DNA of 64,000 nt from a virus, in IMG/VR virus record IMGVR_UViG_3300045988_101835; one strand, given 5' to 3'. Numbering within the stretch: position 1 is the first letter of the stretch; each line of letters opens with the position of its first letter. The notes under the pieces were generated by a model. It did no database searches. It had not been told where the DNA came from and was given only the letters and a program-made list of their open reading frames with translations. Below, one piece after another: positions 16,993-39,062 of the stretch. The position numbers and the translations under genes are program-made.

Positions 16993-19900
16993 ATGGGTGA
17001 TTTTTATACTCATGTTGTAGCGATCGATGATGATTCGATTGGTACGGCTCCGGAGTCCACGGGTGTTCGCCGTGTTGGTGACTCTGTTAGTTCGTTCCTG
17101 CAGGTGGAGTCGGGTGCTTCGCGTCGTGTTACGGACGCGCGTCGTGGTGGTTTCACTGATGGGGAGATTCACAAGGTGGCTTGTAGTCTTTGCAGCATGT
17201 CGCGTGGCAGTCGCCGTGCGTCTTTGGCTAAGATGAGCGCTCCTTTGCGTCGTCGTCTTCTTGCGGAGGGTAAGCGCATTCAGTCTGTTGTTGCGGATTC
17301 GTTTATCGAGTACACGCCGGAGGTTTGCTGGGCCATCAATGACATTATAGAGAATGACTCGTCTGCGGGTTATGACATCTTGAAGTCTAAGTACCGTTCT
17401 TTGCCGCCGGAGGTTAAGACGTTCTATGACGAGTTTTTGAAGAACCGTTACTCTCCTGCTGCTGTTCGTGCTCAGGAGATGTTGGGTCCTTATCGTCTTG
17501 TTCAGGATGACGCTCGTGTGGAGGCATTCCTTGAGGGTGGTTCTACGCAGGAGGGTGCTTTGGATGAGGTTATCGAGGCGGCTTCTGTTTCTGGCGAGGA
17601 GCTGTACGAGACTACTCAGGAGAAACTTGACGAGCTTGGCGAGCGTGCTCAGTCGGCAGCTATGACTTTCATTGAGGAGGTTTCTAATATCTACGAGGAG
17701 GGCATTGCGGATGTTGTTTCGGCCCAGACGTTGGCTTCCGCCGAGGAGGCTACGGAGGATGTCTTGGAGGCACCTATTCCGGAGGAGGATGTTGATGCCC
17801 TTCCTGATCCGAATGTGGATGATACGGATGCCGGAGCTTCTTCGGAGGTTCAGGATTCTGCCGCGTCTCCGGAGTTTGTTGTTCATGGTACTATTGATCC
17901 CGTAGATGATCCCGATTGGGCGTCTAAGAGTAAAGCTACCAATTGGGATATTGTAGACCTTGCTAGTTACACTCAGCGTCAGGAGTTCTTGGGTTCGCTT
18001 GGGAAGAAGGATGCTAAGGGTCGTGATCTTTATGGTCTTCGTTACTATTCTCCCAATGGTCGCAATTCGAGTGTTGCGGAGTTGATCTTCGAGGATTACT
18101 CTCGTTTGCTTGATCGTGCTAAGGCAGCATCATCGTCTAAGCCTGTTGCCGATGACGTCGATGGCTTGGTGTTGGCTTCGGAGCTTTCCGCTCAGCCGCT
18201 GCCTGCTGCTCAGGCGGCTCCAGTTGTTGAGGGTGCTATGTCGCAGGCTGTTCCGTCCGTTCCGGTTAACGTTGGTACTACGGTTCAGGTTTCGTATTTG
18301 GGTAATGTTTATTCGGGTGTCATCACTTCTGTTGGCAATGGTGTTGCCGTCATCGAGGGTCTTCCTTTTGAGTACTTCTCCTTGCGTCAGGCCGAGGGTG
18401 CCTTCACGGGTTCTGATGATGACGTGACTTTCGCCCTTGCGGATGTCGTTCCGGTTCAGATTGTCGAGGAGACGTCTGTTGCACCTTCGTCGAATGATGC
18501 TGACGTTATTATGGCTTCGGAGGATGTTGTTGAGGGCGATGATGCTCCGATAAGTGCGCCGGAGGAGACTCAGGTTACGGAGGATGAGATTATCGAGGAT
18601 TCTGCTTCAGAGGAGTCTTCTAAGCTGATGGGTCGCATTCTTAATGCCTACTTGGACCGGGGTGCTGCTGACGAGTTCGACGTCTATTTGACGGACGATA
18701 AGAGTGGTGGTCCTCGCCTGCATATCGTGTGCGGGGATGATTCGCTTCATGCTTCTATTTTCTATCGTGGTAATCGTGGCTGGAATAAGGTTTATACCTT
18801 CGAGTCGGATGACGCTGCTATTGAGGCTGTCGAAGAGCTGACGGACGATGTTCTTGCGAAGCTTCCCGGCGTCATGGCGGAGCCTGTAGATGCTTCTGCT
18901 CTGCTGTTCGATAGTGTTCGTGACGATGTCGATCCTGCTGTTGTTTCGGAGTTCGAGTCTGTCGTGGGTCCTGAGATTCTCAACGACGTTGCTCCGCTTA
19001 TTCATGTAGTTCATACGACCGAGGATGATGTTGTTCGACGGAGTGTATGGTCTTCGTTGAAGTCCATTGCGGAGGATATTATTCTGGACTTTGGTGACAC
19101 TTTGGGTGGGTTGTCTGTAGGTGATATCTTGTCTATCTTCAATAGTCACAAGTTTTCTACGCCGTGGGGTGCTGTTGTAGACTCTGCTGTTTCGGATGCT
19201 GCCGTTAACTTCACGGTCGATCAAATTATGACGGCTTTGCGCAATGGGGTTGACATTGCTAATGCGGATGATTCTGTATCTATCGTTTTTGATGATGGTG
19301 ATGGTCTTGGTGATGTATTCGTATTCACCACGCCGTCGGGGTCGGTTGTTAAGGATGGCTCCGAGGCTGTTGCTTACTTGTCGGATCATCTTGCTGAGTT
19401 TAAGGACGCTATTTCGAATTCCTATGACGATATTTCAAAGGCTTTGGCTTCTGCGGGGTCCCCTACAGGCGAGGTTCCTGTGGAGGATGCGGAAGGCGAT
19501 GTTTCTCCTGAAGTTGTGGTTGAAGATGCACCGCATGCCGTAGACGAGACTTCCGATCCTGCAGCTATTGACTGGGGTGCTGTGGCTTTGGTTCTGAAGG
19601 ACTGGGGTCTTGCTAATTGCTTCACTTTGGCTCAGACGCCCGATCAGACTCATTTGGTTTCCGCTGCGGAGGCTTTGGCTTCGGCATTGTCTTCGGATAC
19701 CCGTCTGGAGACTCGTCTTGATGCTTCTGTTCCTCGTATTCTTTGCAAGGATCAACGGTTTATTGACATCAAGGCCGATGGTGTCTATGTAGGCACTACG
19801 TTGTTTGTTTACCAGACTGCCGATGATGCTATTGTTACCTTCGCGTCTACCATGTCGAATGCTGCTATTCAGCTTGCTCATAAGATTTACGATGCTACGG

Positions 19901-20655
19901 CTTCGGATGTTGTTGCTGAGGTTGCGAATGAGTTATCGGAGGAAGAGGAGATCGCTCTGCTGCAGGATTCTTTGGAGACGGTTCGTTCGAAGGCTGATTG
20001 GAAGGATCGCCCGTGGGCACAGCATGCATCTTTCCTCCAGAAGTACCCGCGTCTTCGTATGGTGATTGATGACGAGAGTATCTTGTCGGACGCCGCTAAG
20101 CAGGAGGTTCTGCGGTCTATCGAGAACGAGATTTCGGAGGCTTTGAAGTCTAAGAACATTTTGATTGAGGATTCTGCGTCTCTGGCGATTGATCCGGATA
20201 AGGTGAAGGATAGTGCTCCTAACACTTTGGACATTCCTCATACGGCTTCGACTTATCATCGTGTTCGCAATACCCGGAAGGTTCTGGATTCGGTTCTTTC
20301 TGTTGCTTCTGAGATCATGGGCGAGCGCATTAGTGCCGCTAACTACAAGAGTCTCTGCAAGTCTTCGAGTAAGGCCGCTAAGGCGAAGGTTCAGCGTGTT
20401 GTGGATACCGCCGTTGTTATGAACGAGTTGGACTTGATTTGTCCTGACTTATACAAGCGCAAGTTAACGGATTCCTATTGGGTTTGCGACAATGCATCGC
20501 GTGTTTCGGATTCGTTCAAGCTGAATGCTTCGTTTGCTGCGGGTCACGGTTGCTTGGTGTCTAATGCTCCGTTGGATGCGGACGTTGTTGCGGACCGGGA
20601 GGTTTCGAGCTTCAAGCTCAAGAATGGCTCTGAGCTTCACGTGGTTTTAGTTTAA
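16993..20655 (+). CDS. large acidic hypothetical protein (1220 aa)
   Basis: Long uninterrupted ORF, rich in Asp/Glu/Ser/Ala. No motif recognised. Confidence 0.65.
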   Translation: MGDFYTHVVAIDDDSIGTAPESTGVRRVGDSVSSFLQVESGASRRVTDARRGGFTDGEIHKVACSLCSMSRGSRRASLAKMSAPLRRRLLAEGKRIQSVVADSFIEYTPEVCWAINDIIENDSSAGYDILKSKYRSLPPEVKTFYDEFLKNRYSPAAVRAQEMLGPYRLVQDDARVEAFLEGGSTQEGALDEVIEAASVSGEELYETTQEKLDELGERAQSAAMTFIEEVSNIYEEGIADVVSAQTLASAEEATEDVLEAPIPEEDVDALPDPNVDDTDAGASSEVQDSAASPEFVVHGTIDPVDDPDWASKSKATNWDIVDLASYTQRQEFLGSLGKKDAKGRDLYGLRYYSPNGRNSSVAELIFEDYSRLLDRAKAASSSKPVADDVDGLVLASELSAQPLPAAQAAPVVEGAMSQAVPSVPVNVGTTVQVSYLGNVYSGVITSVGNGVAVIEGLPFEYFSLRQAEGAFTGSDDDVTFALADVVPVQIVEETSVAPSSNDADVIMASEDVVEGDDAPISAPEETQVTEDEIIEDSASEESSKLMGRILNAYLDRGAADEFDVYLTDDKSGGPRLHIVCGDDSLHASIFYRGNRGWNKVYTFESDDAAIEAVEELTDDVLAKLPGVMAEPVDASALLFDSVRDDVDPAVVSEFESVVGPEILNDVAPLIHVVHTTEDDVVRRSVWSSLKSIAEDIILDFGDTLGGLSVGDILSIFNSHKFSTPWGAVVDSAVSDAAVNFTVDQIMTALRNGVDIANADDSVSIVFDDGDGLGDVFVFTTPSGSVVKDGSEAVAYLSDHLAEFKDAISNSYDDISKALASAGSPTGEVPVEDAEGDVSPEVVVEDAPHAVDETSDPAAIDWGAVALVLKDWGLANCFTLAQTPDQTHLVSAAEALASALSSDTRLETRLDASVPRILCKDQRFIDIKADGVYVGTTLFVYQTADDAIVTFASTMSNAAIQLAHKIYDATASDVVAEVANELSEEEEIALLQDSLETVRSKADWKDRPWAQHASFLQKYPRLRMVIDDESILSDAAKQEVLRSIENEISEALKSKNILIEDSASLAIDPDKVKDSAPNTLDIPHTASTYHRVRNTRKVLDSVLSVASEIMGERISAANYKSLCKSSSKAAKAKVQRVVDTAVVMNELDLICPDLYKRKLTDSYWVCDNASRVSDSFKLNASFAAGHGCLVSNAPLDADVVADREVSSFKLKNGSELHVVLV

Positions 20656-20721: not shown

Positions 20722-21234
20722 ATGGAAGTTAAGAGTGATTTTGCTTATAAGTCTCCTTTGGGGGGCGTTAGTCTTCAAGTGACGTTTGCGGTTCCGGATG
20801 AGGTTGATGACTTAGACTTCATACCTCGGGTTGCGGATAGTGTTTCCGTTTTATGCGACCGGACTTTCACCGTTGGTGACTTTGTTGTTCGAGGCATGGT
20901 TGCGAAGTACCCTTCGGAGTCGCTTCCGGAGTTAGCTTCTACGCTGTACACGGTTTGGGTTTATGTTTATTGCCAGCCGGAGGATTTCTTTTCGGCCGTA
21001 GGTACCGACTCTGCTCAGGACATTATGATCCAGCGTTGGAATTCGGATTCTATTCATGGGTTCGTTTCTAAGCGTTTGGTTTCGCTTGGGTCGTTTCCGT
21101 CTTCGTCGTTGCTGTCTACGGAGATCCAGAAGTCACTGGGTATTGCTATGTGTACGTGGTGGCACGTGTGCCTTCAGGACATTTACTGGCGACATATGGA
21201 GTCGCTTAAGGTTCCCGCTCTGGTTGTAGATTAG
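20722..21234 (+). CDS. hypothetical protein
   Basis: ATG at 20722 chosen because the track start at 20671 runs through the terminator hairpin. Confidence 0.55.
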   Translation: MEVKSDFAYKSPLGGVSLQVTFAVPDEVDDLDFIPRVADSVSVLCDRTFTVGDFVVRGMVAKYPSESLPELASTLYTVWVYVYCQPEDFFSAVGTDSAQDIMIQRWNSDSIHGFVSKRLVSLGSFPSSSLLSTEIQKSLGIAMCTWWHVCLQDIYWRHMESLKVPALVVD

Positions 21235-21248
21235 TCACCTGCTTCCCT

Positions 21249-21644
21249 ATGGGCCGCTTCAATCCTAAGTTAGCACAGTGGGTAAATTCCAACTTATCGT
21301 TCCGTGATGAGTATAAGGCTATTTTCGGCAAGGAGTTGGATTACGGTACTTGCTACTGTCCTTTTCATGCTAACACGGATACGAAGGCAGCTAAGCTATA
21401 TGGTAATTGGTTGAAGTGCTATGGTGAATGCCAGCGGTCTTATAGTGTTTATGACTTGCTTTGTAAGTTCAATCCTGATCGCCTCCGTGAGTTGCGTTAC
21501 TCGGGTGTTTTGCCGGAGCAGGGTGTTGTCTTTCGCAATGACGTTAAGCCAGTAGTTTTTTCCTACGCTTCGGCGTCGGATATACCTTCGGATTTGGTTC
21601 CGGGGTCTTTTGAGTTTTATACTTTCATTTCGGATTTTCAATGA
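21249..21644 (+). CDS. primase-type CHC2 zinc-finger protein
   Basis: 'CYCPFHANTDTKAAKLYGNWLKCYGEC' matches the DnaG-type CPFH...CxxC zinc-binding pattern. No TOPRIM domain was seen in this ORF. Confidence 0.6.
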   Translation: MGRFNPKLAQWVNSNLSFRDEYKAIFGKELDYGTCYCPFHANTDTKAAKLYGNWLKCYGECQRSYSVYDLLCKFNPDRLRELRYSGVLPEQGVVFRNDVKPVVFSYASASDIPSDLVPGSFEFYTFISDFQ

Positions 21645-21817
21645 GTGCTTTGCAGAAGAAGACGTTGGTGTACGTCGATGGTCATACGGAGGATGTCATT
21701 ATACTTTTCACTTTGGAGATGTGCTACGTTGTTCTGGCTTCTAACCGCCGGGTTGTTTTGGTTTCCCGTGGTGTTGTCAAGAACGTTGTTCCTTACGTTA
21801 AGCGCCAGAAGGAATAG
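21641..21817 (+). CDS. hypothetical small protein (58 aa, below the ORF-track cutoff)
   Basis: ATGA overlap with the upstream stop. Hand translation gives MSALQKKTLVYVDGHTEDVIILFTLEMCYVVLASNRRVVLVSRGVVKNVVPYVKRQKE. Confidence 0.5.
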   Translation: MSALQKKTLVYVDGHTEDVIILFTLEMCYVVLASNRRVVLVSRGVVKNVVPYVKRQKE

Positions 21818-21823
21818 ATCTCT

Positions 21824-23815
21824 ATGTTGTGGGGCACTTTTAATGGGTACAAGGTTGGCTTGGTTCAGAGTCTGTCGGATTTGGATTACATCCGGGCAGA
21901 TTTGCATGCCAATATAGTGGCTGGTTTGGATTCGGAGACGACGAGCTTATCTTTTGTTCACGGTCGAGTGGTAGGGGTATGTATCGCTACGGGTAAGACT
22001 TACAGCAAGGATGACTACTGTGGTTATTACATTCCGATTCGTCATGTGGGCTATCACGCCAATCTTCCGGTTGACCTTGTTATTGCTTTCGTGCAGTATG
22101 TCGTCGATAATTATATGACGATGTGGTGGAACCGGAGTTTCGACTTTTCTATGTTGGAGCTTGACGGGTTCAAGGCACCTTTTGTTGGTAAGACTCATGA
22201 CGTCCAGTTCATGGCGCATGAGATTTTCAATGAGCGTTATCCTAAGCTGAAGGTCTTTGCTAAGCGTCTTTTTGGGTTTAAGACTATCGACTTCGAGGAT
22301 AATAATGCGGTTAATGGTAACTTCGGCTCACTCGACCCGGAGGTCTCTTTCATCTATGCTGCTGCCGACCCTCTCATCACGACACTGTGTGGTCTCCGTA
22401 TTTGGAGTGACTATCCTCATATTCGTCAAATTTACCCGCTGGATAACGAGTCCGGTGAGGCTGTTCGTCGCTTGGCTAAGGCGGATATCCTTCTTGATTA
22501 TGATTTCTTGGATCAGGAGGTCATTCGCACTTCTGCCCGCATGGAGGATGTCCGGCAGCGTATCTATCAGCTTGTGGGCTACGTTTTCAACATCAGTAGT
22601 GAGGATGACAAGGCGGATGCCTTGAGCCGCTTTGTCACGTTGACGGTCCGTACTAAGAGTGGCAAGTTCAAGACGGATAAGAATGTCTTGGCGACGATAG
22701 ATCATCCGTTAGCTAAGCTTATGCTGGAGTATAATGCCTTGAGCACTTACTTGAAGTCTTTCGTTTCCAAGATGGTTTCGTGGCGTCATCGTCAGATTCC
22801 GGTTCATATTAATTATAACCTTGTCGTGGCGTTGACGGGTCGTATGAGTAGCTCCGGGTCGGAGGGTAATGACTTCTACGTTCCTTTTAATGGCCAGAAC
22901 TGTGTTCGTGGTTCTAATACTACAGTTTTCACTCGTTCCGGGTCCAAGTTGATTTCGGAGGTTGTTGTTGGTGACGAGGTTTGGGATGGCGATGCTTTTC
23001 GGCGCGTGTCTGCGGTTTTGGATCAGGGTGTGCGTGAGATTTACCGTTTGACTTTGGAGGATGGTCGTTTCTTGGACGCGACATCAGATCACCCGGTTCT
23101 CACGGCTTCGGGGTTCCACGAGGTTTCTACGTTACTCGGGGTCGATGTTTTGGTGAGTGAGAACCCTCATGTTTTCCTGACTGGTGTAGATTGTGGTCCC
23201 GCTAGGTACTTATGTAGGGTTGTGTCGATCCACCCTATTGGCTATGATCGTGTTTATGACATTACGGTCGATGTATCAGAGCGTTTTGTGGCCAACGGTA
23301 TTATAGTTCATAATTGCCCGAAGGTTTCTTTGAAGATGTATTTGCATACAGATCCTCTTATAGGCTACTGTTTGAAGCATGAGGCGGAGGGTGCTGTGTG
23401 TGATGAGTCGGGCAAGCCTATTAAGTATAAGACGAAGGGAGGACTTCGTGATGCCTTCTTGGCCAACCCGCCGGGGGAGGATGACTGGGTAATGGTTGGC
23501 AACGATTATTGTATTCATCCGGATACATTAGTATCGACACCTTCGGGAGATGTTCGAATAGGTGATATGGTTGGTTGTGAGTTCGAGGTTTCTACGCCTT
23601 ATGGTCCTTGCGTTGCTTCTAATGTTCACCATACTGGTCGTCGCAAGCAGTATCGTATAGAGTTGTCGGACGGTGCGGTTCTGGTTTGCTCTCCAGATCA
23701 TCGTTTGTGGGTGTGTCGTGATGACGTAGATATGTGGGTTAAGGCTTCTGAGCTTTTGAGTAGTGATTATATTTACACTCAGTCTGATGTTACTTATCCG
23801 GAGATTGTGAGCTAG
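21824..23815 (+). CDS. family-A DNA polymerase, N-terminal part (3'-5' exonuclease through motif A) with one complete and one half intein
   Basis: Exo I 'GLDSETTSL'. 'TGRMSSS...NGQN' corresponds to Pol I TGRLSS..NLQN. 'GNDY' is the start of motif A (DYSQIELR). The ORF ends inside an intein N-domain. Confidence 0.85.
   Translation: MLWGTFNGYKVGLVQSLSDLDYIRADLHANIVAGLDSETTSLSFVHGRVVGVCIATGKTYSKDDYCGYYIPIRHVGYHANLPVDLVIAFVQYVVDNYMTMWWNRSFDFSMLELDGFKAPFVGKTHDVQFMAHEIFNERYPKLKVFAKRLFGFKTIDFEDNNAVNGNFGSLDPEVSFIYAAADPLITTLCGLRIWSDYPHIRQIYPLDNESGEAVRRLAKADILLDYDFLDQEVIRTSARMEDVRQRIYQLVGYVFNISSEDDKADALSRFVTLTVRTKSGKFKTDKNVLATIDHPLAKLMLEYNALSTYLKSFVSKMVSWRHRQIPVHINYNLVVALTGRMSSSGSEGNDFYVPFNGQNCVRGSNTTVFTRSGSKLISEVVVGDEVWDGDAFRRVSAVLDQGVREIYRLTLEDGRFLDATSDHPVLTASGFHEVSTLLGVDVLVSENPHVFLTGVDCGPARYLCRVVSIHPIGYDRVYDITVDVSERFVANGIIVHNCPKVSLKMYLHTDPLIGYCLKHEAEGAVCDESGKPIKYKTKGGLRDAFLANPPGEDDWVMVGNDYCIHPDTLVSTPSGDVRIGDMVGCEFEVSTPYGPCVASNVHHTGRRKQYRIELSDGAVLVCSPDHRLWVCRDDVDMWVKASELLSSDYIYTQSDVTYPEIVS
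22901..23314 (+). other. mini-intein 1 (138 aa) inserted after the Pol I ...QN motif
   Basis: Cys1 'CVRGSNTTVF', block B 'LDATSDHPVLT', blocks F/G 'VYDITVDVSERFVANGIIVHN', followed by +1 Cys. No endonuclease domain. Confidence 0.8.
23510..23812 (+). other. split-intein N-fragment (101 aa) at PolA motif A
   Basis: 'DY|CIHPDTLVSTPSGDVRIGDM' (block A) and 'LVCSPDHRLWV' (block B). The ORF stops with TAG at 23813. Confidence 0.7.
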
Positions 23816-23818
23816 TGT

Positions 23819-23935
23819 ATGGGACGCGCTTCTAATATAAAATCCATTTCGGTATTACAGGATGAAGTTGACATGATTGACTTCTCTGTTGCGGGTGCTC
23901 ATTGCTACTATGCCAATGGTATGTTGGTCCATAAC
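23819..23935 (+). other. split-intein C-fragment (39 aa)
   Basis: 'MGRASNIKSISVLQDEVDMIDFSVAGAHCYYANGMLVHN', followed by +1 Cys. Blocks F/G are present. Confidence 0.7.
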
Positions 23936-26743
23936 TGCTCTGAGGAAATCGCCCTTGTAGCTAACATGTCCCGTGAGGAGGGTTTCTTGTATCCGCTGCG
24001 TCATGATCTCGATGTCCATATGTACGTTGCGGAGACGCGCTTCCATGTTTCGGACCCTGAGTTTCGTGATAAGTCTAAAGCTGTCTCGTTCGGTAAGATT
24101 TACGGTGGTGGTCCTACGATGATCGCTAACCGACTTGGTATTTCGAAGCAGGAGGCCAATAAGATCATCTATGACTACGATACGGGTATGCCTGTTTTTG
24201 CTAGGTGGCAGAAGGCTTTGCAGAAGCAGGCAAAACGTACGGGTTTTGCTAAGACGTTCTTTGGGCGCACTATTTACTTGGCTCGGTGGTTTAATTCTCC
24301 GGATAACGGATTGCGCGCTTATGCTGACCGAGTTGCTCTCAACAGTCCAATTCAGGGTCCCACGCCCCCTAACACTCTGATTTTGACCACTTTAGGCTAT
24401 GTTCCTATTAAGCATTTATATACCTTAGATGTTGCAGGGCAGCTTGCTCCATATGGTGTTAAGTGTTGGAATGGTGTTCGATGGTGCGATTTTCATGTTG
24501 TTGATGCGGGGTTAGGTGATATCCTTCGTTTTAAGTTCAAGCGTGGCAACTATGTTGACGTTGACGTTCGCCATCAGTTTAAGGTTTGGACTTCGGATGG
24601 GTGTGTTTTTGAGGATGCTACTAAGTTGTCGGTTGGGGATCGTGTTGCGGGGTCTTTGTGCCGTCGCCTTGAGTTCCCGGCACTGACGTTCTGTTGTTCT
24701 TCACAGTCGCGGTTGAAGGGTCTGCTTATCTCTCATTCTCCCCGTACCCTTTCCTACGAGGATAGCGTGACTTTGATGTGGTGGGTCGGTTATGCTTTAG
24801 GTGATGGTAACTTTAGTACGCCTAATGCTATTCGGTTTACATTAGGGGCTACGGAGACTTTCCGGTATGACGATGCTTCGGCTTTCTTTCCGTCTATTGG
24901 TTGTACGGTTGGTAAGTTGAATCATTGTACGGCAGATATGCCGGGGCGTAAGGGTGAGTGTTACACGTTCGTTGTGTATGGTGTCGATGTTATGCGGTGC
25001 TTGCGGCGCTTGGGTCTTGATTTTCGTTGGCGTCATCACACTAAGCGCATTCCGTGGCGACTGTGTTGTTCGTCTATTGCCCAGCGCAAGGCTTTGGTTG
25101 ATGGATTGTTTGCTTCAGATGGCTGTAAGACAGAGGAACAGTTCATGTGGCATATGTGCCAGTCGGACATTCTTCGTGACTTGCAGCGGTTGCTTCGGAC
25201 TTTAGGGTTTGATAGTACTTTGTATGCTGCGCCAGATGGTAAGTCCTATCGCTTGGTTGTGTGTGCGACTCAGGATTTCGCTCGGTTTATGGGTTATCCT
25301 TTGAAGGAGCAAGCGGGTCGTATTGGTCCGGGTCGCTGGAATGATCGTCGGATGGTTCCGTCGGTTTTGTGCCAGCGGTTTGTCTCTTGGCAGCAATCGC
25401 ACGGAGGTCCGTCGCCTGATCTGCCCTCTAAGCGTCGCCAGTCGGATATGGCATTAATGAGTCGCCTTCGTCATGGTGGTTCTGTTTCGTTTTCGACTTT
25501 CGAGAGCTTGGCTTCGGATTATGGCTATACGGAGTATCAGACGTGGGATGACTATCTGGAGGCTCAGGAGATCGTTGATATTGTTTCTTTGCCGCCGGAG
25601 AACTGCTATTGCCTTTCGTTGGATGATGAAAGCCATTGCTACGACACGGATGGTCTTATTTCTCATAATTGTTTACCTCGGTCCTTGTATTCGCCGTCGC
25701 AGGATGGTAAGGTTTATTCTCCGTGGCAGTCGTTCGTCGGCCACCGTATGACTTTCCAGACTCGGTCGGACGGCGCACGTGTTGGCGTTCCTACGTTCCG
25801 GGGTGAGCACGACCTTCATGTTGCTTTGTTCGATACGGGTGACTTCTGTGTTTGCAATCTGGGTCATAAGTTCGTTAAGTATGGTACGGATCGCGTCTTG
25901 CTTGGTTTGGATGAGATAGGTACTGCGCCTGTTGCTTTGATTCCGCCTATGCGCAAGAGTAAGTGGGGCTGGTTGAAGGGCTTGTTTAGTAGCCATAAGT
26001 GGACTTTGGAGTCGCTTCTTGCGCATGGTAAGATGGGCCGTGACATCCGCACGGACGATTGGGCTGTCTGCTGGTGTATGCTGAAGGCATTTATGACGCG
26101 AAAACGGGTCCATACGCGGTCGATGTTATCCGCAATGATCCTACGGTCCATCTGCGATCTTTTCGGCTGGAATTTGGTCTACGATTTGCGCCATTCGGTT
26201 GTTGATGATTATGCTTTCAAGTTACGGTGGGGTCGTCGGCGTAAGGGTCACGCTATTTTCGCCACGGAACTTGGAATTCGGGATAACGTTATTTCTCCGT
26301 CCATGTCTTCGGGCCTTCAGACTTACCCGTTGTGTGGCTTCATTCATAAGAACACGGGTGGTGACTTGATTCGCCGTGACTTGGTTAAGTTCGAGCGTTT
26401 GAATGATCTGCTCCCGGAGTGGCGTGAGAACGTCCGCTTCGTGGTTACGGTTCACGATGAGGTCCAGTTCCGTGTTCGCCGTAAGTATTTGTTCAAGGCT
26501 ATTCCTATCATCCAGAAGGTCATGAACTTCTGGCCTAAGAATTTTGAGACTCCGGTTGTTGTTGAGCCGGGTGTTGGTTTCCGCTGGGGCGGTGAGCTTG
26601 ATATTGACGCTGTTCTGGATGACGGTCGTATTGTTCCTAAAGGTTACATGCCGCCGCCGGAGTACTTCGAGGGCCACGAGGTCTATTGGCTTCGTTCGTG
26701 GAAGGAGGAAGAGGAGAAGAAGCGTGGTTTGTCTAAGAAGTGA
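23819..26743 (+). CDS. family-A DNA polymerase, C-terminal part (motifs A-rest, B, C) with intein insertions
   Basis: After 'VHN' the sequence 'CSEEIALVANMS' completes motif A. Motif B is 'KSKAVSFGKIYGG', 'NSPIQG' ... 'TGGDLIRR' corresponds to Pol I PMQGTAADIIK, and motif C is 'VTVHDEVQF'. Confidence 0.85.
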   Translation: MGRASNIKSISVLQDEVDMIDFSVAGAHCYYANGMLVHNCSEEIALVANMSREEGFLYPLRHDLDVHMYVAETRFHVSDPEFRDKSKAVSFGKIYGGGPTMIANRLGISKQEANKIIYDYDTGMPVFARWQKALQKQAKRTGFAKTFFGRTIYLARWFNSPDNGLRAYADRVALNSPIQGPTPPNTLILTTLGYVPIKHLYTLDVAGQLAPYGVKCWNGVRWCDFHVVDAGLGDILRFKFKRGNYVDVDVRHQFKVWTSDGCVFEDATKLSVGDRVAGSLCRRLEFPALTFCCSSQSRLKGLLISHSPRTLSYEDSVTLMWWVGYALGDGNFSTPNAIRFTLGATETFRYDDASAFFPSIGCTVGKLNHCTADMPGRKGECYTFVVYGVDVMRCLRRLGLDFRWRHHTKRIPWRLCCSSIAQRKALVDGLFASDGCKTEEQFMWHMCQSDILRDLQRLLRTLGFDSTLYAAPDGKSYRLVVCATQDFARFMGYPLKEQAGRIGPGRWNDRRMVPSVLCQRFVSWQQSHGGPSPDLPSKRRQSDMALMSRLRHGGSVSFSTFESLASDYGYTEYQTWDDYLEAQEIVDIVSLPPENCYCLSLDDESHCYDTDGLISHNCLPRSLYSPSQDGKVYSPWQSFVGHRMTFQTRSDGARVGVPTFRGEHDLHVALFDTGDFCVCNLGHKFVKYGTDRVLLGLDEIGTAPVALIPPMRKSKWGWLKGLFSSHKWTLESLLAHGKMGRDIRTDDWAVCWCMLKAFMTRKRVHTRSMLSAMILRSICDLFGWNLVYDLRHSVVDDYAFKLRWGRRRKGHAIFATELGIRDNVISPSMSSGLQTYPLCGFIHKNTGGDLIRRDLVKFERLNDLLPEWRENVRFVVTVHDEVQFRVRRKYLFKAIPIIQKVMNFWPKNFETPVVVEPGVGFRWGGELDIDAVLDDGRIVPKGYMPPPEYFEGHEVYWLRSWKEEEEKKRGLSKK
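24359..25669 (+). other. intein 3 (437 aa) with LAGLIDADG homing-endonuclease domain; no N-terminal nucleophile (Pro1)
   Basis: Begins right after 'PIQG' with a block-A-like 'PTPPNTLILTTLGYVPIKHL'. Block B is 'VDVRHQFKVW'. LAGLIDADG motifs are 'WWVGYALGDGNF' and 'ALVDGLFASDGC'. Blocks F/G are 'NCYCLSLDDESHCYDTDGLISHN', followed by Cys. Confidence 0.6.
25670..26353 (+). other. intein-like insertion 4 (228 aa), directly abutting intein 3
   Basis: Cys1 'CLPRSLYSPSQDGKVYS' (block-A spacing), 'CNLGHKFVKY' (block-B-like), ending '...LCGFIHKN' before the +1 Thr of 'TGGDLIRR'. The penultimate residue is Lys, not His. Confidence 0.45.
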
Positions 26744-26755
26744 GTACGTTGATTT

Positions 26756-26980
26756 ATGGAGTGCTGTTACAGTCCCGGCGACTTGGTTTCCGGCAGTTGG
26801 GTTGCCGTGGGGACGTTTAAGTCTTGCGGTGCAGTTTGTGGGAGTTACATTTGCCTTCTTTCGGATATGTCGGAGGTTCGTCTCTATTGGGATGGCTCCG
26901 GCTTTTTGAAGGACTTGGGTTCCTTTTACGTGGCGGCGCTGGAGGAGGATTTTGTAGTTTCGGTTTTATGCACGATGTAG
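26756..26980 (+). CDS. hypothetical small Cys-rich protein
   Basis: 74-aa ORF; the other frames in this region look like shadows. Confidence 0.45.
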   Translation: MECCYSPGDLVSGSWVAVGTFKSCGAVCGSYICLLSDMSEVRLYWDGSGFLKDLGSFYVAALEEDFVVSVLCTM

Positions 26981-27053
26981 GTATGCATGAGTTTGTAGCA
27001 GATTGGGAGTTGGTTATTATTCCTGTTGAGGAATGTTTTAATAGTGAGGTGGT

Positions 27054-27365
27054 ATGGGCTTTTTAAGTGTGCTGGCATGGTGCTTGGGTAGTTACTATGC
27101 CCTTTCGTACTTTGTTTTCGTTCTTATTCTTTGGAATCTGAATGACATGTATAAGTCGGAGAATGGTATTCCGTGGGGTTATGCTAAGATAGTTGCCATT
27201 CCGTTTATAGGGTTCTGGCTCTTTGTTATGGTTGTCATAGGGGACATTGCTCGCCATCGTGACAATGAGCTTCTGAAGGCTCAGAATGCTAAGGATCGAA
27301 ATGGTTCTATGCACACCGGGTCGGACACTCGTTTCCATCGTGGTGGAGGCGATACGGAGGATTAA
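27054..27365 (+). CDS. small membrane protein
   Basis: 103 aa with three hydrophobic segments and a polar tail. Confidence 0.55.
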   Translation: MGFLSVLAWCLGSYYALSYFVFVLILWNLNDMYKSENGIPWGYAKIVAIPFIGFWLFVMVVIGDIARHRDNELLKAQNAKDRNGSMHTGSDTRFHRGGGDTED

Positions 27366-27381
27366 CTGGTGTTGTGTGGCC

Positions 27382-27412
27382 GGCGTCGCATTAAAGTGCA
27401 AAATTGTATATA
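27382..27412 (+). repeat. degenerate right-end-like fragment of the TnpB element family
   Basis: 'ggcgtc...gtgcaaaattgtatata' shares gcgtc, gtgcaa and aattgtatata with the element 3' ends ('gcgtcaatatgtgcaagttattaattgtatata'), with a 6-nt gap. Confidence 0.35.
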
Positions 27413-27473
27413 GCTGTATGCTAAAGATGGGAATCTTTGGCTGTTGGGATAAAAAATAGGCGTTCTGTCTGTT

Positions 27474-27502
27474 CCTCCGCGAATTCTTTGCGGAGGTTTT
27501 TT
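27474..27502 (+). terminator. rho-independent terminator
   Basis: cctccgc-gaattcttt-gcggagg followed by T6. Confidence 0.7.
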
Positions 27503-27535
27503 GTTGAGGTAATCATATACAATTTTATTCTGCCG

Positions 27536-27567
27536 TTTGTAATAGACGTAAAATAATTATAACTTGC
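27536..27567 (+). promoter_or_regulatory. Bacteroides-type promoter inside the element left end
   Basis: TTTG at 27536-27539, a 20-nt spacer, then TAACTTGC at 27560-27567, 4 nt before the tnpB ATG. The same geometry occurs at 37833-37864 and 48168-48199. Confidence 0.4.
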
Positions 27568-27571
27568 AGCC

Positions 27572-28750
27572 ATGAAGAAGACATTCAAATATCGCATCTA
27601 CCCGAACAAAGCCCAGCAGGCTTTGTTACAGGCGACGTTTGGATGCTGCCGCTTCGTTTACAACAAAACGCTTGATATTAGGAAGACGGCTTACGAGACC
27701 GACAAGATGAAGCTTAGTAAGTTCGATTGCATCAATCGGATGACTGCGTTGAAGGATGAGTATACGTGGTTGCGTGCCGTTCCTGCGGTTTGCTTGGTTC
27801 AGGCTGTTGACAACATGGATACAGCCTACCAAAACTTCTTCAAATCTGGTAAAGGTTATCCGAAGTTTAAGTCGAAGCATCGTAGCCGTAAGTCCTGTAA
27901 GTTTATGGTGCCTAAGTGTGTTGTATTGCAAGATATTAGTCGTTTAAAGCTTTCTAAGTTAGGGTTAGTCAAGTACAAGAAAGACCGGGAGTTCGTTGGC
28001 GCTTTGCGTCACATTGTGGTTACACAAGAAAACGATGGTAAGTACTACGCGTCGTGCTTGGTGGAGACGGGCGTTGAAGCACCTAAGCCAAAGCCCGTTG
28101 ATGATAGCACAACGGTCGGCATTGACTTGGGGCTGAAAGACTTTATCGTCACGTCCGACGGGCGCAAGATACCTAACCCGCGCTTTTATGCTACTATTGA
28201 CCGACGCATAGCTAGGTTACAGAAGCATGAAGCACGAAAGACGAAAGGCTCGAAGCGTCGTGCCCGCATTCGCTTAAAGATTAACAAACTTTATATCAAG
28301 AAGCAAAACTTAATTAAGAATTATATTTACCATGCCGTCAAGACGTTACTGCGTGAGAGTCAAACGATAGTAATGGAGAATCTTAATGTTGGCGGCATGG
28401 TTAAGAATCATAGTTTAGCTAAATCCATACAGAACATTTGCTGGGGTGAACTTCGCAGAGTGTTAGAGTATAAGTCTCAATGGCTTGGTCATAACCTTAT
28501 TTTCATAGATCGTTGGGCACCGAGTACGAAGACTTGTAGTTGTTGCGGCTTTAAGAATGATATATTAACACTTTCAGATCGTTCGTGGACATGTCCGGGT
28601 TGTGGTACGCATCACGACAGAGATGTTAACGCTGCCCTCAACATTAAGCGTATGGGTTTAGAAAAGTTATTGCCTACGGTGAGTGGGTTCGACGGACGTG
28701 GAGAGATCGGTTACGATCTCGACGAAGCGTCAATATGTGCAAGTTATTAA
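27572..28750 (+). CDS. tnpB: TnpB (OrfB) RNA-guided nuclease family protein
   Basis: N-terminal 'YRIYPNKAQQALLQATFGCCRFVYN', RuvC-I 'GIDLGLKDF', RuvC-II 'VMENLN', zinc finger 'CSCCG...CPGCG', RuvC-III 'HHDRDVNAALNI'. Confidence 0.9.
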   Translation: MKKTFKYRIYPNKAQQALLQATFGCCRFVYNKTLDIRKTAYETDKMKLSKFDCINRMTALKDEYTWLRAVPAVCLVQAVDNMDTAYQNFFKSGKGYPKFKSKHRSRKSCKFMVPKCVVLQDISRLKLSKLGLVKYKKDREFVGALRHIVVTQENDGKYYASCLVETGVEAPKPKPVDDSTTVGIDLGLKDFIVTSDGRKIPNPRFYATIDRRIARLQKHEARKTKGSKRRARIRLKINKLYIKKQNLIKNYIYHAVKTLLRESQTIVMENLNVGGMVKNHSLAKSIQNICWGELRRVLEYKSQWLGHNLIFIDRWAPSTKTCSCCGFKNDILTLSDRSWTCPGCGTHHDRDVNAALNIKRMGLEKLLPTVSGFDGRGEIGYDLDEASICASY

Positions 28751-28765
28751 TTGTATATAATCACC
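28636..28765 (+). ncRNA. putative omega-RNA (reRNA) scaffold overlapping the tnpB 3' end
   Basis: By analogy with characterised TnpB systems. The conserved hairpin gagatcg-gtta-cgatctc (28703-28720) shows compensatory changes in the other copies. The 5' boundary is a guess. Confidence 0.4.
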
Positions 28766-28781
28766 CTTTGTTTGTAGAATA

Positions 28782-28813
28782 TTTGGATTATTAATTTAAC
28801 TTTACTATCTTTG
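28782..28813 (+). promoter_or_regulatory. Bacteroides-type promoter
   Basis: TTTG at 28782-28785, a 20-nt spacer, then TATCTTTG at 28806-28813. Confidence 0.6.
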
Positions 28814-28856
28814 TGGTGTGGTAATAGTGCCGCGCATAACTAATTTGGATTGTATC

Positions 28857-29192
28857 ATGCCTAAGCGTAAGATTTCCGTCGGCTCTTATGTCTATTTGCC
28901 GCTTCCGGGTATTCAGAGTTGTTCTTTAGGAGTTTGTGCTCGTGTCGTCTTGTTGTACTCCACTCCTTGTGAGGAGTGCGTTGCCGTTGGGGATCGTTAT
29001 TATGATCCTGTTTCGGGTGAGTCGGGCGACCTGTCTTCTCATTCGCATATTGTAGTTCGTCCTGCGAGTTACTTGACGGGATATGGCCTTGAGGATTGCC
29101 AGCAAGTTGTTGCGATCTTTTCGCGGAGCATGATAAGCCCTACGAAGCCGTCTCCGTCTATTGTTCGTTTAGCACGTTATGCAGGAGTCTAG
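28857..29192 (+). CDS. hypothetical early protein
   Basis: First ATG downstream of the promoter. The track start at 28818 falls at or before the expected transcription start. Confidence 0.5.
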   Translation: MPKRKISVGSYVYLPLPGIQSCSLGVCARVVLLYSTPCEECVAVGDRYYDPVSGESGDLSSHSHIVVRPASYLTGYGLEDCQQVVAIFSRSMISPTKPSPSIVRLARYAGV

Positions 29193-37806: not shown

Positions 37807-39062
37807 GGTAATTATTTACTTTTTCATTTTCATTTGCAATAAATGTAAAATAATTGTAACTTGCAGTCGTGAAGAAGGCATTTAAATATCGCATTTATCC
37901 GAACAAGGCCCAGCAGGCTTTGTTGCAGGCGACGTTTGGGTGCTGTCGCTTCGTGTATAATAAAACGCTAGACATCAGGAAGACGACGTATGAGAGGGAT
38001 AAGACGCAGCTTAGCAAGTTTGACTTAACCAAGAAGATACCGCTGCTTAAAGAAGAGTTTCCGTGGTTGCGCGACGTTCCGGCGGTATGCTTGCCGCAAG
38101 CAGTCGGCGATATGGATGATGCCTATCAGAAGTTCTTTAAGTCCGGTAATGGTTATCCTAAGTTTAAGACGAAGCATCGCAGCCGTAAGTCTTGTCGTTT
38201 TCCGGGCCAGAGTTGTGCGGTATTGCAAGACATTAGTCGTTTAAAGTTTCATAAGTTAGGCTTAGTCAAGTATAAGAAGGATCGTGAGTTCGTCGGTACT
38301 TTACGTCACATTGTGGTTACACAGGAAAGTGACGGTAAGTACTACGCTTCGTGTGTAGTAGAGACGGGTGTCGAAGCACCTAAGCCACAATCCGCAGAAG
38401 CTAGTACGACGGTCGGTATTGACTTAGGACTCAAAGACTTTATCGTTACGTCGGACGGACGCAAGATAGCTAACCCGCGGTTCTACGCTACTATTGACCG
38501 TCGTATAGCTCGGTTGCAGAAGCACGAAGTTAGAAAGACGAAAGGGTCTAAGCGTCGTGCACGCATCCGATTGAAAATTAACAAACTTTATGTTAAGAAA
38601 CGCAACTTAATCAAAAATTATATTTACCATGTTGCCAAGACGTTACTGCGTGAAAGCCAAACGTTAGTAATGGAAAATCTCAATATTGTCGGCATGGTTA
38701 AGAATCATAGTTTAGCTAAATCCATCCAGAATATTTGTTGGGGTGAACTGCGTAGAGTGTTGGAGTACAAGTCTCAATGGCTTGGCCACAATCTCATCCT
38801 CATAGATCGTTGGGCACCGAGTACGAAGACTTGTAGTTGTTGCGGTTTCCACAATTCTATGTTGACGCTTTCAGATCGTTCGTGGGTTTGTCCGGGTTGC
38901 GGTACGCATCACGACAGAGACGTCAATGCTGCGATTAATATTAAGCGTATGGGTTTAGAGTCATTATTGCCTGCGGTGGGCGGGTTTGACGGACGTGGAG
39001 AGGTTGGTTACAACTTCGACGAGGCGTCAATATGTACAGTGTAGAAATTGTATGCATTCACC
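37807..39062 (+). mobile_element. TnpB-only insertion element, copy 2
   Basis: Left end ggtaattatttac... and right end ...aattgtatgcattcacc. Its ends are more decayed than those of copies 1 and 3. Confidence 0.75.
37869..39044 (+). CDS. tnpB: TnpB family protein (GTG start)
   Basis: Full set of motifs as in copy 1: GIDLGLKDF, VMENLN, CSCCG...CPGCG, HHDRDVNAAINI. The start codon is GTG where the other copies have ATG. Confidence 0.85.
   Translation: MKKAFKYRIYPNKAQQALLQATFGCCRFVYNKTLDIRKTTYERDKTQLSKFDLTKKIPLLKEEFPWLRDVPAVCLPQAVGDMDDAYQKFFKSGNGYPKFKTKHRSRKSCRFPGQSCAVLQDISRLKFHKLGLVKYKKDREFVGTLRHIVVTQESDGKYYASCVVETGVEAPKPQSAEASTTVGIDLGLKDFIVTSDGRKIANPRFYATIDRRIARLQKHEVRKTKGSKRRARIRLKINKLYVKKRNLIKNYIYHVAKTLLRESQTLVMENLNIVGMVKNHSLAKSIQNICWGELRRVLEYKSQWLGHNLILIDRWAPSTKTCSCCGFHNSMLTLSDRSWVCPGCGTHHDRDVNAAINIKRMGLESLLPAVGGFDGRGEVGYNFDEASICTV

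Follow-up and report, generated by a model that had tools for sequence, protein, structure and literature searches.

How might an intein splice when its first residue is a proline and the residue that follows its last one is the catalytic cysteine of a second intein? This question is raised by a DNA polymerase gene in a 64,000-nucleotide stretch of viral DNA (IMG/VR record IMGVR_UViG_3300045988_101835; hereafter the window), in which an earlier reading of the letters alone (the sequence-only reading) had proposed a pair of directly abutting inteins. Inteins are usually regarded as independent units with host sequence between them. Our analysis suggests that the QG-T site of the polymerase (hyphens in motifs mark junctions) probably does hold two genuine inteins back to back, namely an old class-1 intein, unit 2, preceded by a younger mobile intein, unit 1, with class-3-type chemistry.

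The insertion and its natural alleles

The host gene, which is from a gut phage, encodes a family A DNA polymerase (Pfam DNA_pol_A, NCBIfam PRK05755) at 21824-26743 on the plus strand. It is divided into two ORFs, 21824-23815 and 23819-26743, the products of which would presumably be joined by a split intein; undivided alleles of 1359 and 1497 aa also exist. The inteins in this polymerase number four, each with its own presence/absence pattern. Within the second ORF (974 aa), positions 24359-26353 of the plus strand encode 665 residues without a stop, running from PTPPN to GFIHKN between NSPIQG and TGGDLIRR, precisely as had been claimed. The insertion is real, and the motif that it interrupts is conserved: as also anticipated, this motif is contiguous elsewhere, N[SA]PIQG[ST]AAD[IL]IK being uninterrupted in 40 bacterial Pol I matches. 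A compositional break was looked for at the boundaries of both units and found at neither. A crAss-like origin, considered given reports of intein-rich crAss-like phages, was not supported by PHROG scans of ten large ORFs, which returned helicase, tail-fibre and transposase families only.

The sequence-only reading had divided the insert into two units at 25669/25670, and this division is now fixed by natural alleles, independently of motif reading alone. Relatives that are 95-98% identical lack exactly 24359-25669 (unit 1, 437 codons) and retain 25670-26353 (unit 2). Polymerases P0028 and P0029 (both 95-98% identical), P0034, P0035 and P0076 all read NSPIQG-[S/C]LP...KN-TGGD, with unit 1 absent; at the level of DNA, the junction CAGGGG-AGTTTG of the empty allele corresponds to CAGGGT, unit 1 and TGTTTA in the window. 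The boundaries of unit 1 recur in a second, independent allele pair (P0076 and P0031), so that its presence or absence is precise at one site in both pairs, with differences of 437 and 443 codons. It had been conceded that unit 1 might begin elsewhere with a Cys, Ser or Thr. The empty-site alleles instead fix the junctions as G-P...N-C, and no frame-shifted boundary with such a start is compatible with them. Position 2 of unit 1, which is Thr in the window, varies among 12 homologues.

Anatomy and conservation of the two units

Unit 2 (25670-26353, plus strand) is a 228-aa Hint-fold element, recognized from AF2 modeling, Foldseek searches of PDB and BFVD, and alignment. As proposed, it starts with the Cys that doubles as the +1 residue of unit 1 and ends HKN before Thr; block-B His66 lies between, residues ~95-175 form a helical insert, and no endonuclease motifs were found within it. 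The reservation that unit 2 might not be a Hint fold did not hold, the AF2 model being of high confidence (pLDDT 94.8, pTM 0.92). In the PDB, 49 of the 50 listed Foldseek neighbors (all but the last) are inteins, HINT domains or intein homing endonucleases, with target-normalized TM values of 0.6-0.69 against the Npu and Ssp mini-inteins, and the matches in BFVD are intein-bearing viral proteins. Among 31 sequences, position 1 is Cys in 27 and Ser in the remaining 4, while His66 (within [CVS]xxxHKF), Lys227 and Asn228 are invariant and +1 is always Thr, down to 23% identity.

Unit 2 could be identified only by an exhaustive HMMER search and by structure prediction. Neither it nor its 31 homologues have a match in Pfam or NCBIfam; its profile reached only DnaE inteins among PDB sequences (E 1.2-1.8), and phmmer, an indexed protein search and tblastn of GenBank phages gave nothing useful. 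The exhaustive search recovered 30 clusters, each with unit 2, from 1.8 billion representatives, and no polymerase allele free of it was found in the clade among 35 close relatives and all polymerase matches of that search. Two free-standing unit-2-like proteins, P0089 and P0096, lack the terminal Asn. Removal of unit 2 restores the conserved host motif, PIQG plus TGGD resembling PIQG[ST]AAD of bacterial Pol I, in which the position of Thr+1 (26354-26356, plus strand; the first C-extein residue) is likewise Ser or Thr. Since unit 2 splits the motif PIQG-T(G/A)(G/A)D, this motif must be rejoined. Most likely, unit 2 is a class-1 intein that is fixed in the clade and lacks a homing endonuclease.

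Unit 1 (24359-25669, plus strand) is an intein of 437 aa that includes a LAGLIDADG homing endonuclease, as indicated by Pfam, AF2, Foldseek, alignment and the empty-site alleles. In agreement with the sequence-only reading, it opens with Pro (codon CCC, 24359-24361, plus strand) at the position of the class-1 N-terminal nucleophile, closes with ...NCYCLSLDDESHCYDTDGLISHN and has Cys418 (25610-25612, plus strand), the proposed branch nucleophile, at block F position 4. Block B is represented by His72 at position 10 (24572-24574, plus strand), followed two residues on by Phe74 at position 12. The two LAGLIDADG motifs that had been noted are indeed there, each with its Asp (LGDGNF and FASDGC). 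The endonuclease domain spans approximately 24770-25360 on the plus strand, limits taken from the Pfam match (LAGLIDADG_3, PF14528, E 9e-10, residues 243-310), the helix-strand pattern of the model and structural matches to I-DmoI that align ~200 columns. Foldseek neighbors of the AF2 model (pLDDT 87.2) include the TliVMA intein (E 2e-20), PI-PfuI (1e-13) and PI-SceI (1e-11), and unit 1 has a complete intein fold, with Hint interrupted by the two-motif LAGLIDADG domain.

Relatives of unit 1 were gathered by a search for related loci, as a protein search with the unit 1 alignment yielded one fragment only. More than 30 distinct unit-1-bearing sequences are intact ORFs, on contigs of up to 139 kb. 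In 12 homologues, down to 24% identity, His72, Cys418, Ser435, His436 and Asn437 are invariant; position 1 is Pro in 11 and Asp in one, and a nucleophile in none.

The two units meet at a single shared codon (TGT, 25670-25672, plus strand), which the translation and the junction DNA place as residue +1 of unit 1 and residue 1 of unit 2, with zero residues between the units in all 12 unit-1-bearing lineages. The shared residue is Cys in every allele that bears unit 1 (8 lineages; 12/12 homologues). In unit-1-free alleles it is Cys or Ser, the closest of these (P0028, P0029, P0034 and P0076) having AGT or AGC for Ser; P0084, the unit-1-free relative of P0085, retains Cys. Fixation of Cys could stem from co-conversion or hitch-hiking rather than from chemical need.

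Unit 1 between class 1 and class 3

The description of unit 1 as "class-3-like" proves apt: it combines Pro1, as in the DnaB intein of mycobacteriophage Bethlehem (MP-Be), with the defining block-F Cys nucleophile, while Phe and Ser stand in for the Trp and Thr of the WCT triplet and the +1 residue is Cys. Like the class 3 inteins (prototype MP-Be DnaB, Msm DnaB-1, Mch DnaB1, Dra Snf2 and Bvi IcmO), unit 1 lacks an N-terminal nucleophile. The prototype also starts with Pro1, and its block-F Cys and block-B His are absolutely required (PMC2807308); these residues, at F4 and B10, are invariant in unit 1 too, and both share an H-N end and a phage source. The resemblance is incomplete, as only the Cys of the WCT triplet is present. 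Where class 3 conserves Trp at B12 and has Thr at G5, unit 1 has Phe74 at B12 in the window, Leu in distant members and Trp only in P0031, together with an invariant Ser435 at G5, a conservative replacement. The corresponding W(B12)F mutant of the prototype (W67F) retains partial splicing (PMC2807308). The +1 residue, typically Ser or Thr in class 3 inteins (PMC2807308), is Cys in all 12 unit 1 homologues, for which Bvi IcmO is the single known precedent (PMC5222942), and only in unit 1 is it the first residue of another intein. Furthermore, the reported class 3 hosts are helicase-type proteins (DnaB, RecG, Snf2), phage terminase large subunits, Cas4 exonucleases and IcmO, whereas that of unit 1 is DNA polymerase I.

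Searched against the PDB, the unit 1 profile matches class-1 HEN inteins at E 1e-9 to 1e-5, as against 1.1 and 2.2 for the class 3 DnaB inteins 6bs8 and 6rix; affinity to solved class 3 inteins is thus undetectable in sequence (E about 1-2). A match to a helicase of Pectobacterium phage phiTE was rejected as a class 3 link, because it is a class-1 intein of the ordinary kind, with Cys1 and with Asp at F4, and has mainly the endonuclease domain in common. From its signatures, unit 1 would appear to work like a class 3 intein, whereas by sequence its nearest relatives are class-1 inteins, and such signatures alone are no proof of a splicing mechanism.

Class-1 LAGLIDADG inteins with the same architecture as unit 1 occupy the Pol I QG-T insertion point in L002 (LR745208.1), L007 (IMGVR_UViG_3300010391_001345) and L011 (IMGVR_UViG_3300028840_006257), polymerases without unit 2. 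Homology to unit 1 (BLASTP 3e-33 for L007, 3e-15 for L002) extends from end to end through blocks A, B, F and G and the endonuclease. The three start with Cys and are followed directly by the extein Thr, in contrast to unit 1, with its Pro1 and subsequent Cys; similarly, the class-1 relatives have Asp or Thr at F4, where unit 1 has Cys418. A neighbor-joining tree (no bootstrap) places the Pro1/Cys-F4 forms in one clade, sister to L007. The occurrence of Cys1/Asp-F4 and Pro1/Cys-F4 members at one site of one protein offers a natural series with which to reconstruct the transition between class 1 and class 3.

Class 3 inteins can, by a structural argument, hardly evolve from class 1 (PMC7664689). 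A tentative proposal, about which we ourselves are rather doubtful, is that unit 1 represents an independent natural switch of a class-1 lineage to block-F-Cys chemistry, made only after settling before another intein, and that the pair constitutes a coupled relay from Cys418 through the shared Cys to Thr+1. If true, this would provide an extant intermediate in the contested origin of class 3, the first intein with the catalytic Cys of another intein as its +1 nucleophile, and proof that an occupied homing site need not be emptied before it is invaded again.

A splicing pathway and its alternatives

We infer the splicing chemistry of the pair, the unit-1-first order and the endonuclease activity, and envisage the following history. 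Unit 2 would be an old, endonuclease-less class-1 intein, fixed in the polymerase clade, in which Cys1 or Ser1 forms a thioester or ester, the N-extein passes to Thr+1 and Asn228 cyclizes. The younger partner, unit 1, would be a mobile LAGLIDADG intein that homed into the junction between N-extein and unit 2, and its target would therefore be half polymerase DNA and half intein DNA. Unit 1 most likely splices by class-3-type chemistry: Cys418 of block F, activated by His72, would attack the bond between Gly and Pro1 and so form a branched thioester, the N-extein would move to Cys1 of unit 2, and cyclization of Asn437 would free unit 1. Unit 2, now in a normal context, could then splice. Ordered or interdependent splicing of the abutting units, as the sequence-only reading had proposed, is a reasonable expectation. 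As one catalytic residue is common to both inteins, their reactions must be coordinated, so that order and coupling are testable with a few point mutants.

The shared Cys also invites a more intimate arrangement, in which the two units form one machine that passes the N-extein acyl group from Cys418 to Cys1 of unit 2 and on to Thr+1, without an N-S shift by unit 2; unit 1 may then depart attached to unit 2, giving a 665-aa product, or be removed later by Asn437. Going by the schemes for classes 1 and 3 (PMC2807308, PMC5222942), the branched intermediate that unit 1 forms on this Cys would be chemically identical to the acyl-thioester of the first step of unit 2, and direct handover to Thr+1 is therefore possible. 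The absence of a spacer residue in all 12 lineages, and of Ser at the shared position wherever unit 1 is present, are in keeping with such a scheme. We nonetheless consider it unlikely, because the invariance of His436 and Asn437 down to 24% identity speaks for unit 1 resolving its C-terminal junction unaided, and because unit 2 in unit-1-free alleles would appear to splice alone, needing no partner. This apparent competence of unit 2 could equally permit it to splice first, as a class-1 intein that takes N-extein plus unit 1 as its N-extein, leaving unit 1 to face Thr+1 and splice second. Ser or Thr at +1 is typical of class 3 (PMC2807308), and the class-1 inteins related to unit 1 in this position of the polymerase all use Thr+1. 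That order is, however, quite improbable, as it would place a thioester on the Asn437 carbonyl, beside the cyclizing side chain, with a risk of dead-end cleavage, and would leave the invariable Cys next to unit 1 unexplained.

A different chemistry would apply if unit 1 were a class-2 intein of the KlbA type, in which the +1 Cys (Cys1 of unit 2) directly attacks the bond between Gly and Pro1 and the role of Cys418 is purely structural. Like KlbA inteins, unit 1 lacks an N-terminal nucleophile and is always followed by Cys (PMC2807308), and the incomplete WCT triplet would fit. We judge this very improbable, since class 2 is defined by absence of the triplet including its block-F Cys, which unit 1 not only has but keeps invariant where class-1 relatives have Asp or Thr. 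It is also highly unlikely that splicing has been lost from one or both units, unit 2 having been domesticated as a Hint-derived polymerase domain or unit 1 being a dead, gene-inactivating insertion. The failure to find a unit-2-free allele in the clade or an intein HMM match for unit 2, its penultimate Lys where His is usual, and the Asn-less P0089 and P0096 all point in this direction. Against it, unit 2 retains Cys or Ser at position 1, His66, Asn228 and Thr+1 down to 23% identity; the insert interrupts a conserved Pol I active-site motif; and the more than 30 distinct unit-1-bearing genes are intact, with conserved catalytic residues.

Known systems and the mobility of unit 1

Unit 2 resembles HEN-less mini-inteins (Npu and Ssp DnaE, Ssp DnaB and the Mtu RecA splicing domains) in its Hint fold, Cys1, block-B His, terminal Asn followed by a nucleophile, and location in a conserved motif of a replication protein. 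It differs from them in an additional helical domain of ~80 aa, an invariant Lys where His is the usual penultimate residue, the lack of an intein HMM match, and fixation in the host clade, where no empty allele was found. Several inteins with separate presence/absence patterns in one replication gene, as here, are known from haloarchaeal MCM (MCM-a to MCM-d) and Msm DnaB (i1 and i2). In those cases extein residues lie in between, whereas units 1 and 2 have none and one residue serves both. Literature phrase searches for inteins without intervening extein found no description of such a pair. Unit 2, which is HEN-less, uses Thr+1 and tolerates Ser1, and unit 1, with Cys+1 and no N-terminal nucleophile, are candidate orthogonal parts for sequential protein ligation.

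Unit 1 would further be a homing endonuclease intein with an extein-intein junction as its target. A degenerate resident intein would therefore give the site no protection, which bears on the homing-cycle model. In both allele pairs, substitutions crowd within 12 nt of the unit 1 insertion site, with 4 in 24 nt in the first pair (P = 0.06) and 6 in 24 nt in the second, against a background of 2.5% (P = 2e-5). Homing driven by the endonuclease, or resistance at the target site, would be expected to leave such a cluster. In allele P0024, neither LAGLIDADG Asp remains while the splicing parts are unchanged, a pattern that by its sequence looks like typical endonuclease decay.

Alleles that divide the polymerase insert

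The insert of 665 residues (PTPPN...GFIHKN) lies between NSPIQG and TGGDLIRR and is encoded free of stops by 24359-26353 on the forward strand, inside an ORF of 974 aa (23819-26743, +). Both Pfam and NCBIfam assign its flanks to family A DNA polymerase; in Pfam the match falls in two stretches, the stronger of which ends immediately ahead of the insert. The equivalent bacterial Pol I motif, N[SA]PIQG[ST]AAD[IL]IK, runs uninterrupted in 40 sequences from our homology search; hence the insertion and its place in a conserved motif are real, as the sequence-only reading had claimed. The phage is an uncultured member of the Caudoviricetes, roughly 130 kb in size and encountered in many metagenomes, and DNA near-identical to the 8-kb stretch 21000-29000 was not found among GenBank phage records.

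Searching with the complete ORF gave 35 close relatives, most of which carry the full insert. Exactly the first 437 residues are missing from P0028 and P0029 (95-98% identical) and from P0034 and P0035 (about 50%), which read NSPIQG/(S or C)LP...KN/TGGD. At the DNA level, the empty site of L003, a 127-kb contig from a sister phage, is CAGGGG/AGTTTGCCTAGG, and the occupied site of the window is CAGGGT/(1311 nt)/TGTTTACCTCGG. A second, independent allele pair comprises P0076, which lacks unit 1 and has an AGC Ser codon, and P0031, which has unit 1 and a TGT Cys codon. The proposed boundary between unit 1 (24359-25669, +, 437 aa) and unit 2 (25670-26353, +, 228 aa) is thus an observed natural polymorphism, since there are alleles that lack unit 1 precisely. 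Shifting it so that unit 1 would begin with Cys, Ser or Thr never fits the empty alleles, and the start without a nucleophile therefore stands.

Unit 2, a predicted Hint fold and probable intein without an endonuclease

Unit 2 had no match in Pfam, NCBIfam, PDB sequences or GenBank phages, nor any in a word-indexed protein search, and intein HMMs do not detect it. Exhaustive HMMER searching of 1.84 billion representatives yielded only 30 clusters; in most of these the protein is a family A polymerase, 531-1651 aa long and in some cases split or truncated, and the unit occupies the same position in it. The exceptions are P0101, a repeat protein with a marginal match, and three proteins of ~235 aa, one of which (P0093) is a truncated polymerase. 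Across an alignment of 31 sequences, with identity down to 23%, H66, K227 and N228 do not vary, position 1 is Cys in 27 and Ser in the remaining 4, and the residue that follows the unit is always Thr. The invariant Lys occupies the penultimate position, where most inteins carry His.

AlphaFold2 modelling from this alignment gave a pLDDT of 94.8 and a pTM of 0.92. Inteins, HINT domains or intein homing endonucleases fill ranks 1-49 of the 50 Foldseek PDB neighbours listed, with target-normalised TM scores of up to 0.67-0.69 against Npu DnaE and Npu DnaB. The BFVD neighbours are viral proteins bearing inteins, the best being a 1250-aa protein (TMq 0.74) equal in length to the polymerase P0098. 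The predicted structure of unit 2 is accordingly a Hint fold, as had been proposed, with an additional helical domain of ~80 aa (residues ~95-175). The unit interrupts a conserved helix motif of the polymerase, retains all residues needed for class-1 splicing and has no endonuclease motifs; an empty allele free of unit 2 was not found in this polymerase clade. It is best read as a working intein that lacks a homing endonuclease and has become fixed in this clade. Free-standing unit-2-like proteins without polymerase flanks or the terminal Lys-Asn also occur (P0089, 237 aa; P0096, 236 aa), and these could represent copies of the Hint domain that have decayed or been domesticated.

Unit 1 and its relation to class 3 and class 1 inteins

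Unit 1 matches Pfam LAGLIDADG_3 (E 9e-10), and in the window it retains both LAGLIDADG Asp residues. Its AlphaFold2 model (pLDDT 87.2), built from 12 homologues with identity down to 24%, matches the endonuclease-containing inteins TliVMA (2e-20), PI-PfuI (1e-13) and PI-SceI (1e-11), and the endonuclease part also matches I-DmoI. Invariant in these homologues are His72 (block position B10), Cys418 (F4), Ser420, His426 and the terminal Ser435-His436-Asn437. Eleven of the 12 have Pro at position 1 and the other has Asp, so that a nucleophile never stands there; the residue after the unit is in every case Cys, which is also residue 1 of unit 2. The Pro start, the block F Cys and the double use of the Cys that opens unit 2 were all part of the sequence-only reading and are borne out here.

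Class 3 inteins are defined by the lack of an N-terminal nucleophile together with a Trp(B12)-Cys(F4)-Thr(G5) triplet, and their +1 residue is usually Ser or Thr (PMC2807308). Their prototype, the MP-Be DnaB intein, begins with Pro1; it depends on both Cys F4 and His B10, and its W(B12)F mutant stays partly active (PMC2807308). The first and most critical of these features are shared by unit 1: its position 1 is nucleophile-free and occupied by Pro, and it has both Cys F4 and His B10. The differences lie at B12, where the window has Phe, P0031 Trp and distant members Leu, at G5, which is Ser, and at +1, which is Cys. Furthermore, its profile matches class-1 endonuclease-containing inteins at E 1e-9 to 1e-5 but the solved class 3 DnaB inteins at only 1.1-2.2. 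Given these differences and profile scores, the earlier label of class-3-like holds for the probable mode of working, since unit 1 most likely works as a class 3 intein does; it does not extend to descent, and on its sequence affinities we do not assign the unit to the class 3 lineage.

A LAGLIDADG intein homologous to unit 1 sits exactly at QG/T in three phage Pol I genes free of unit 2, namely those of L002 (LR745208.1; CLHPES...MYDIEVFDDDHAFVCDGVITHN/TSAD), L007 (an IMG/VR contig; CLPVHT...TYTLAVHNSLHRFDSEGVVSKN/TAAD) and L011 (another IMG/VR contig). BLASTP aligns unit 1 with the L007 intein across residues 35-437, blocks B, F and G included (E 3e-33), and with the L002 intein from block A on (E 3e-15). 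The L007 intein is 27% identical to unit 1 of the window, similar to the 24-33% of distant Pro1 members. In a neighbour-joining tree of small sample and without support values, the Pro1/Cys-F4 forms group together in a single clade to which L007 is sister, and L002 and L011 branch outside it. Thus a single intein family at a single site has two forms: Cys1 combined with Asp or Thr at F4 where unit 2 is absent, and Pro1 combined with Cys at F4 where unit 2 adjoins. This pattern bears on the structural argument that class 3 inteins are unlikely to have come from class 1 by gradual change (PMC7664689).

Phrase searches on tandem, adjacent and nested inteins in a body of 8 million papers revealed no natural pair without extein residues between its members, the nearest published topic being the neighbouring inteins of haloarchaeal MCM. 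In the papers that we consulted, the hosts given for class 3 inteins are helicase-type proteins (DnaB, RecG, Snf2), phage terminases, Cas4 exonucleases and IcmO; Pol I is not among them. Inteins, LAGLIDADG homing and block-F-Cys chemistry are already known; the abutting arrangement and its evolutionary setting are new.

Splicing order, homing and neighbouring elements

The most economical path that we infer begins with unit 1. Cys418 would attack the Gly-Pro1 bond, the acyl group would pass to the shared Cys and cyclisation of Asn437 would free unit 1, after which unit 2 would splice normally to Thr+1. A relay, in which unit 2 directly uses the thioester that unit 1 has placed on the shared Cys, seems rather unlikely. 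Splicing of unit 2 before unit 1, which would then use the invariant Thr as its +1 residue, is improbable, and a class 2 route, with direct attack by the +1 Cys in place of Cys418, very improbable indeed.

The shared Cys itself is what would be expected if unit 1 chemically required Cys at +1, as it is present in all eight unit-1-bearing lineages and is replaced by Ser in the nearest unit-1-free alleles of two lineages. Alternatively, it could reflect hitch-hiking or target-site effects; P0084, a unit-1-free relative of the unit-1-bearing P0085, retains Cys. More distant unit-1-free polymerases mostly retain it as well, and the Ser alleles may be endonuclease-resistant. The Ser codons of the nearest unit-1-free alleles (L003, at 5110-5112, and L014) are AGT/AGC as against TGT in unit-1-bearing alleles (25670-25672 in the window), and are accompanied by clustered synonymous changes.

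Alleles with 94-98% DNA identity differ in whether they carry unit 1, and in both allele pairs substitutions are concentrated at the insertion site. The first pair differs at 4 of 24 nt, namely -1, +1, +6 and +10 (background 6.4%, P = 0.06), and the second at 6 of 24 nt, namely -7, -1, +1, +3, +4 and +9 (background 2.5%, P = 2e-5). Such clustering would be expected if the endonuclease drove co-conversion, or if empty sites were selected for resistance to cleavage. In this clade, the site at which unit 1 homes must have polymerase DNA as its left part and DNA of unit 2 as its right part. In P0024, unit 1 differs little from that of the window in its splicing parts, but its endonuclease region is strongly diverged and has lost both LAGLIDADG Asp residues (GAG and ASG against GDG and SDG); judged by sequence, this endonuclease looks to be undergoing decay or replacement.

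The same polymerase gene holds two further inteins. One is a mini-intein of 138 aa (22901-23314, +; NGQN/CVRGS...IVHN/CPKV) that matches Pfam Intein_splicing and TIGR01445/TIGR01443 and is sporadic, being present in 1497-aa and 1060-aa alleles and absent from 1359-aa alleles (NGQN/CPKV). The other is naturally split (23510-23812 and 23819-23935, +) and cuts the gene into two ORFs, with an N part of 101 aa (GNDY/CIHPDTLV...) running up to a TAG stop at 23813-23815 and a C part of 39 aa (...LVHN/CSEE) from an ATG at 23819. Alleles free of it read GNDY/ASEE, with Ala rather than Cys at +1, and a contiguous form is present in P0083 and P0088.

A strongly acidic ORF of 1220 aa (16993-20655, +) lies about 1.2 kb upstream of the polymerase, separated from it by two short ORFs; it belongs to no recorded family and is conserved in L003. 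Of the ten large ORFs scanned, five gave no match in PHROG. Three TnpB-like genes (27572-28750, 37869-39044 and 48204-49382, all +) are spaced about 10.3 kb apart, and the two that were scanned match transposase phrog_506 (E 1e-122). The products of these two share 83% identity, and over their first 300 nt the three copies are 75-83% identical. Since the otherwise collinear L003 lacks the first copy, that copy is a recent insertion.
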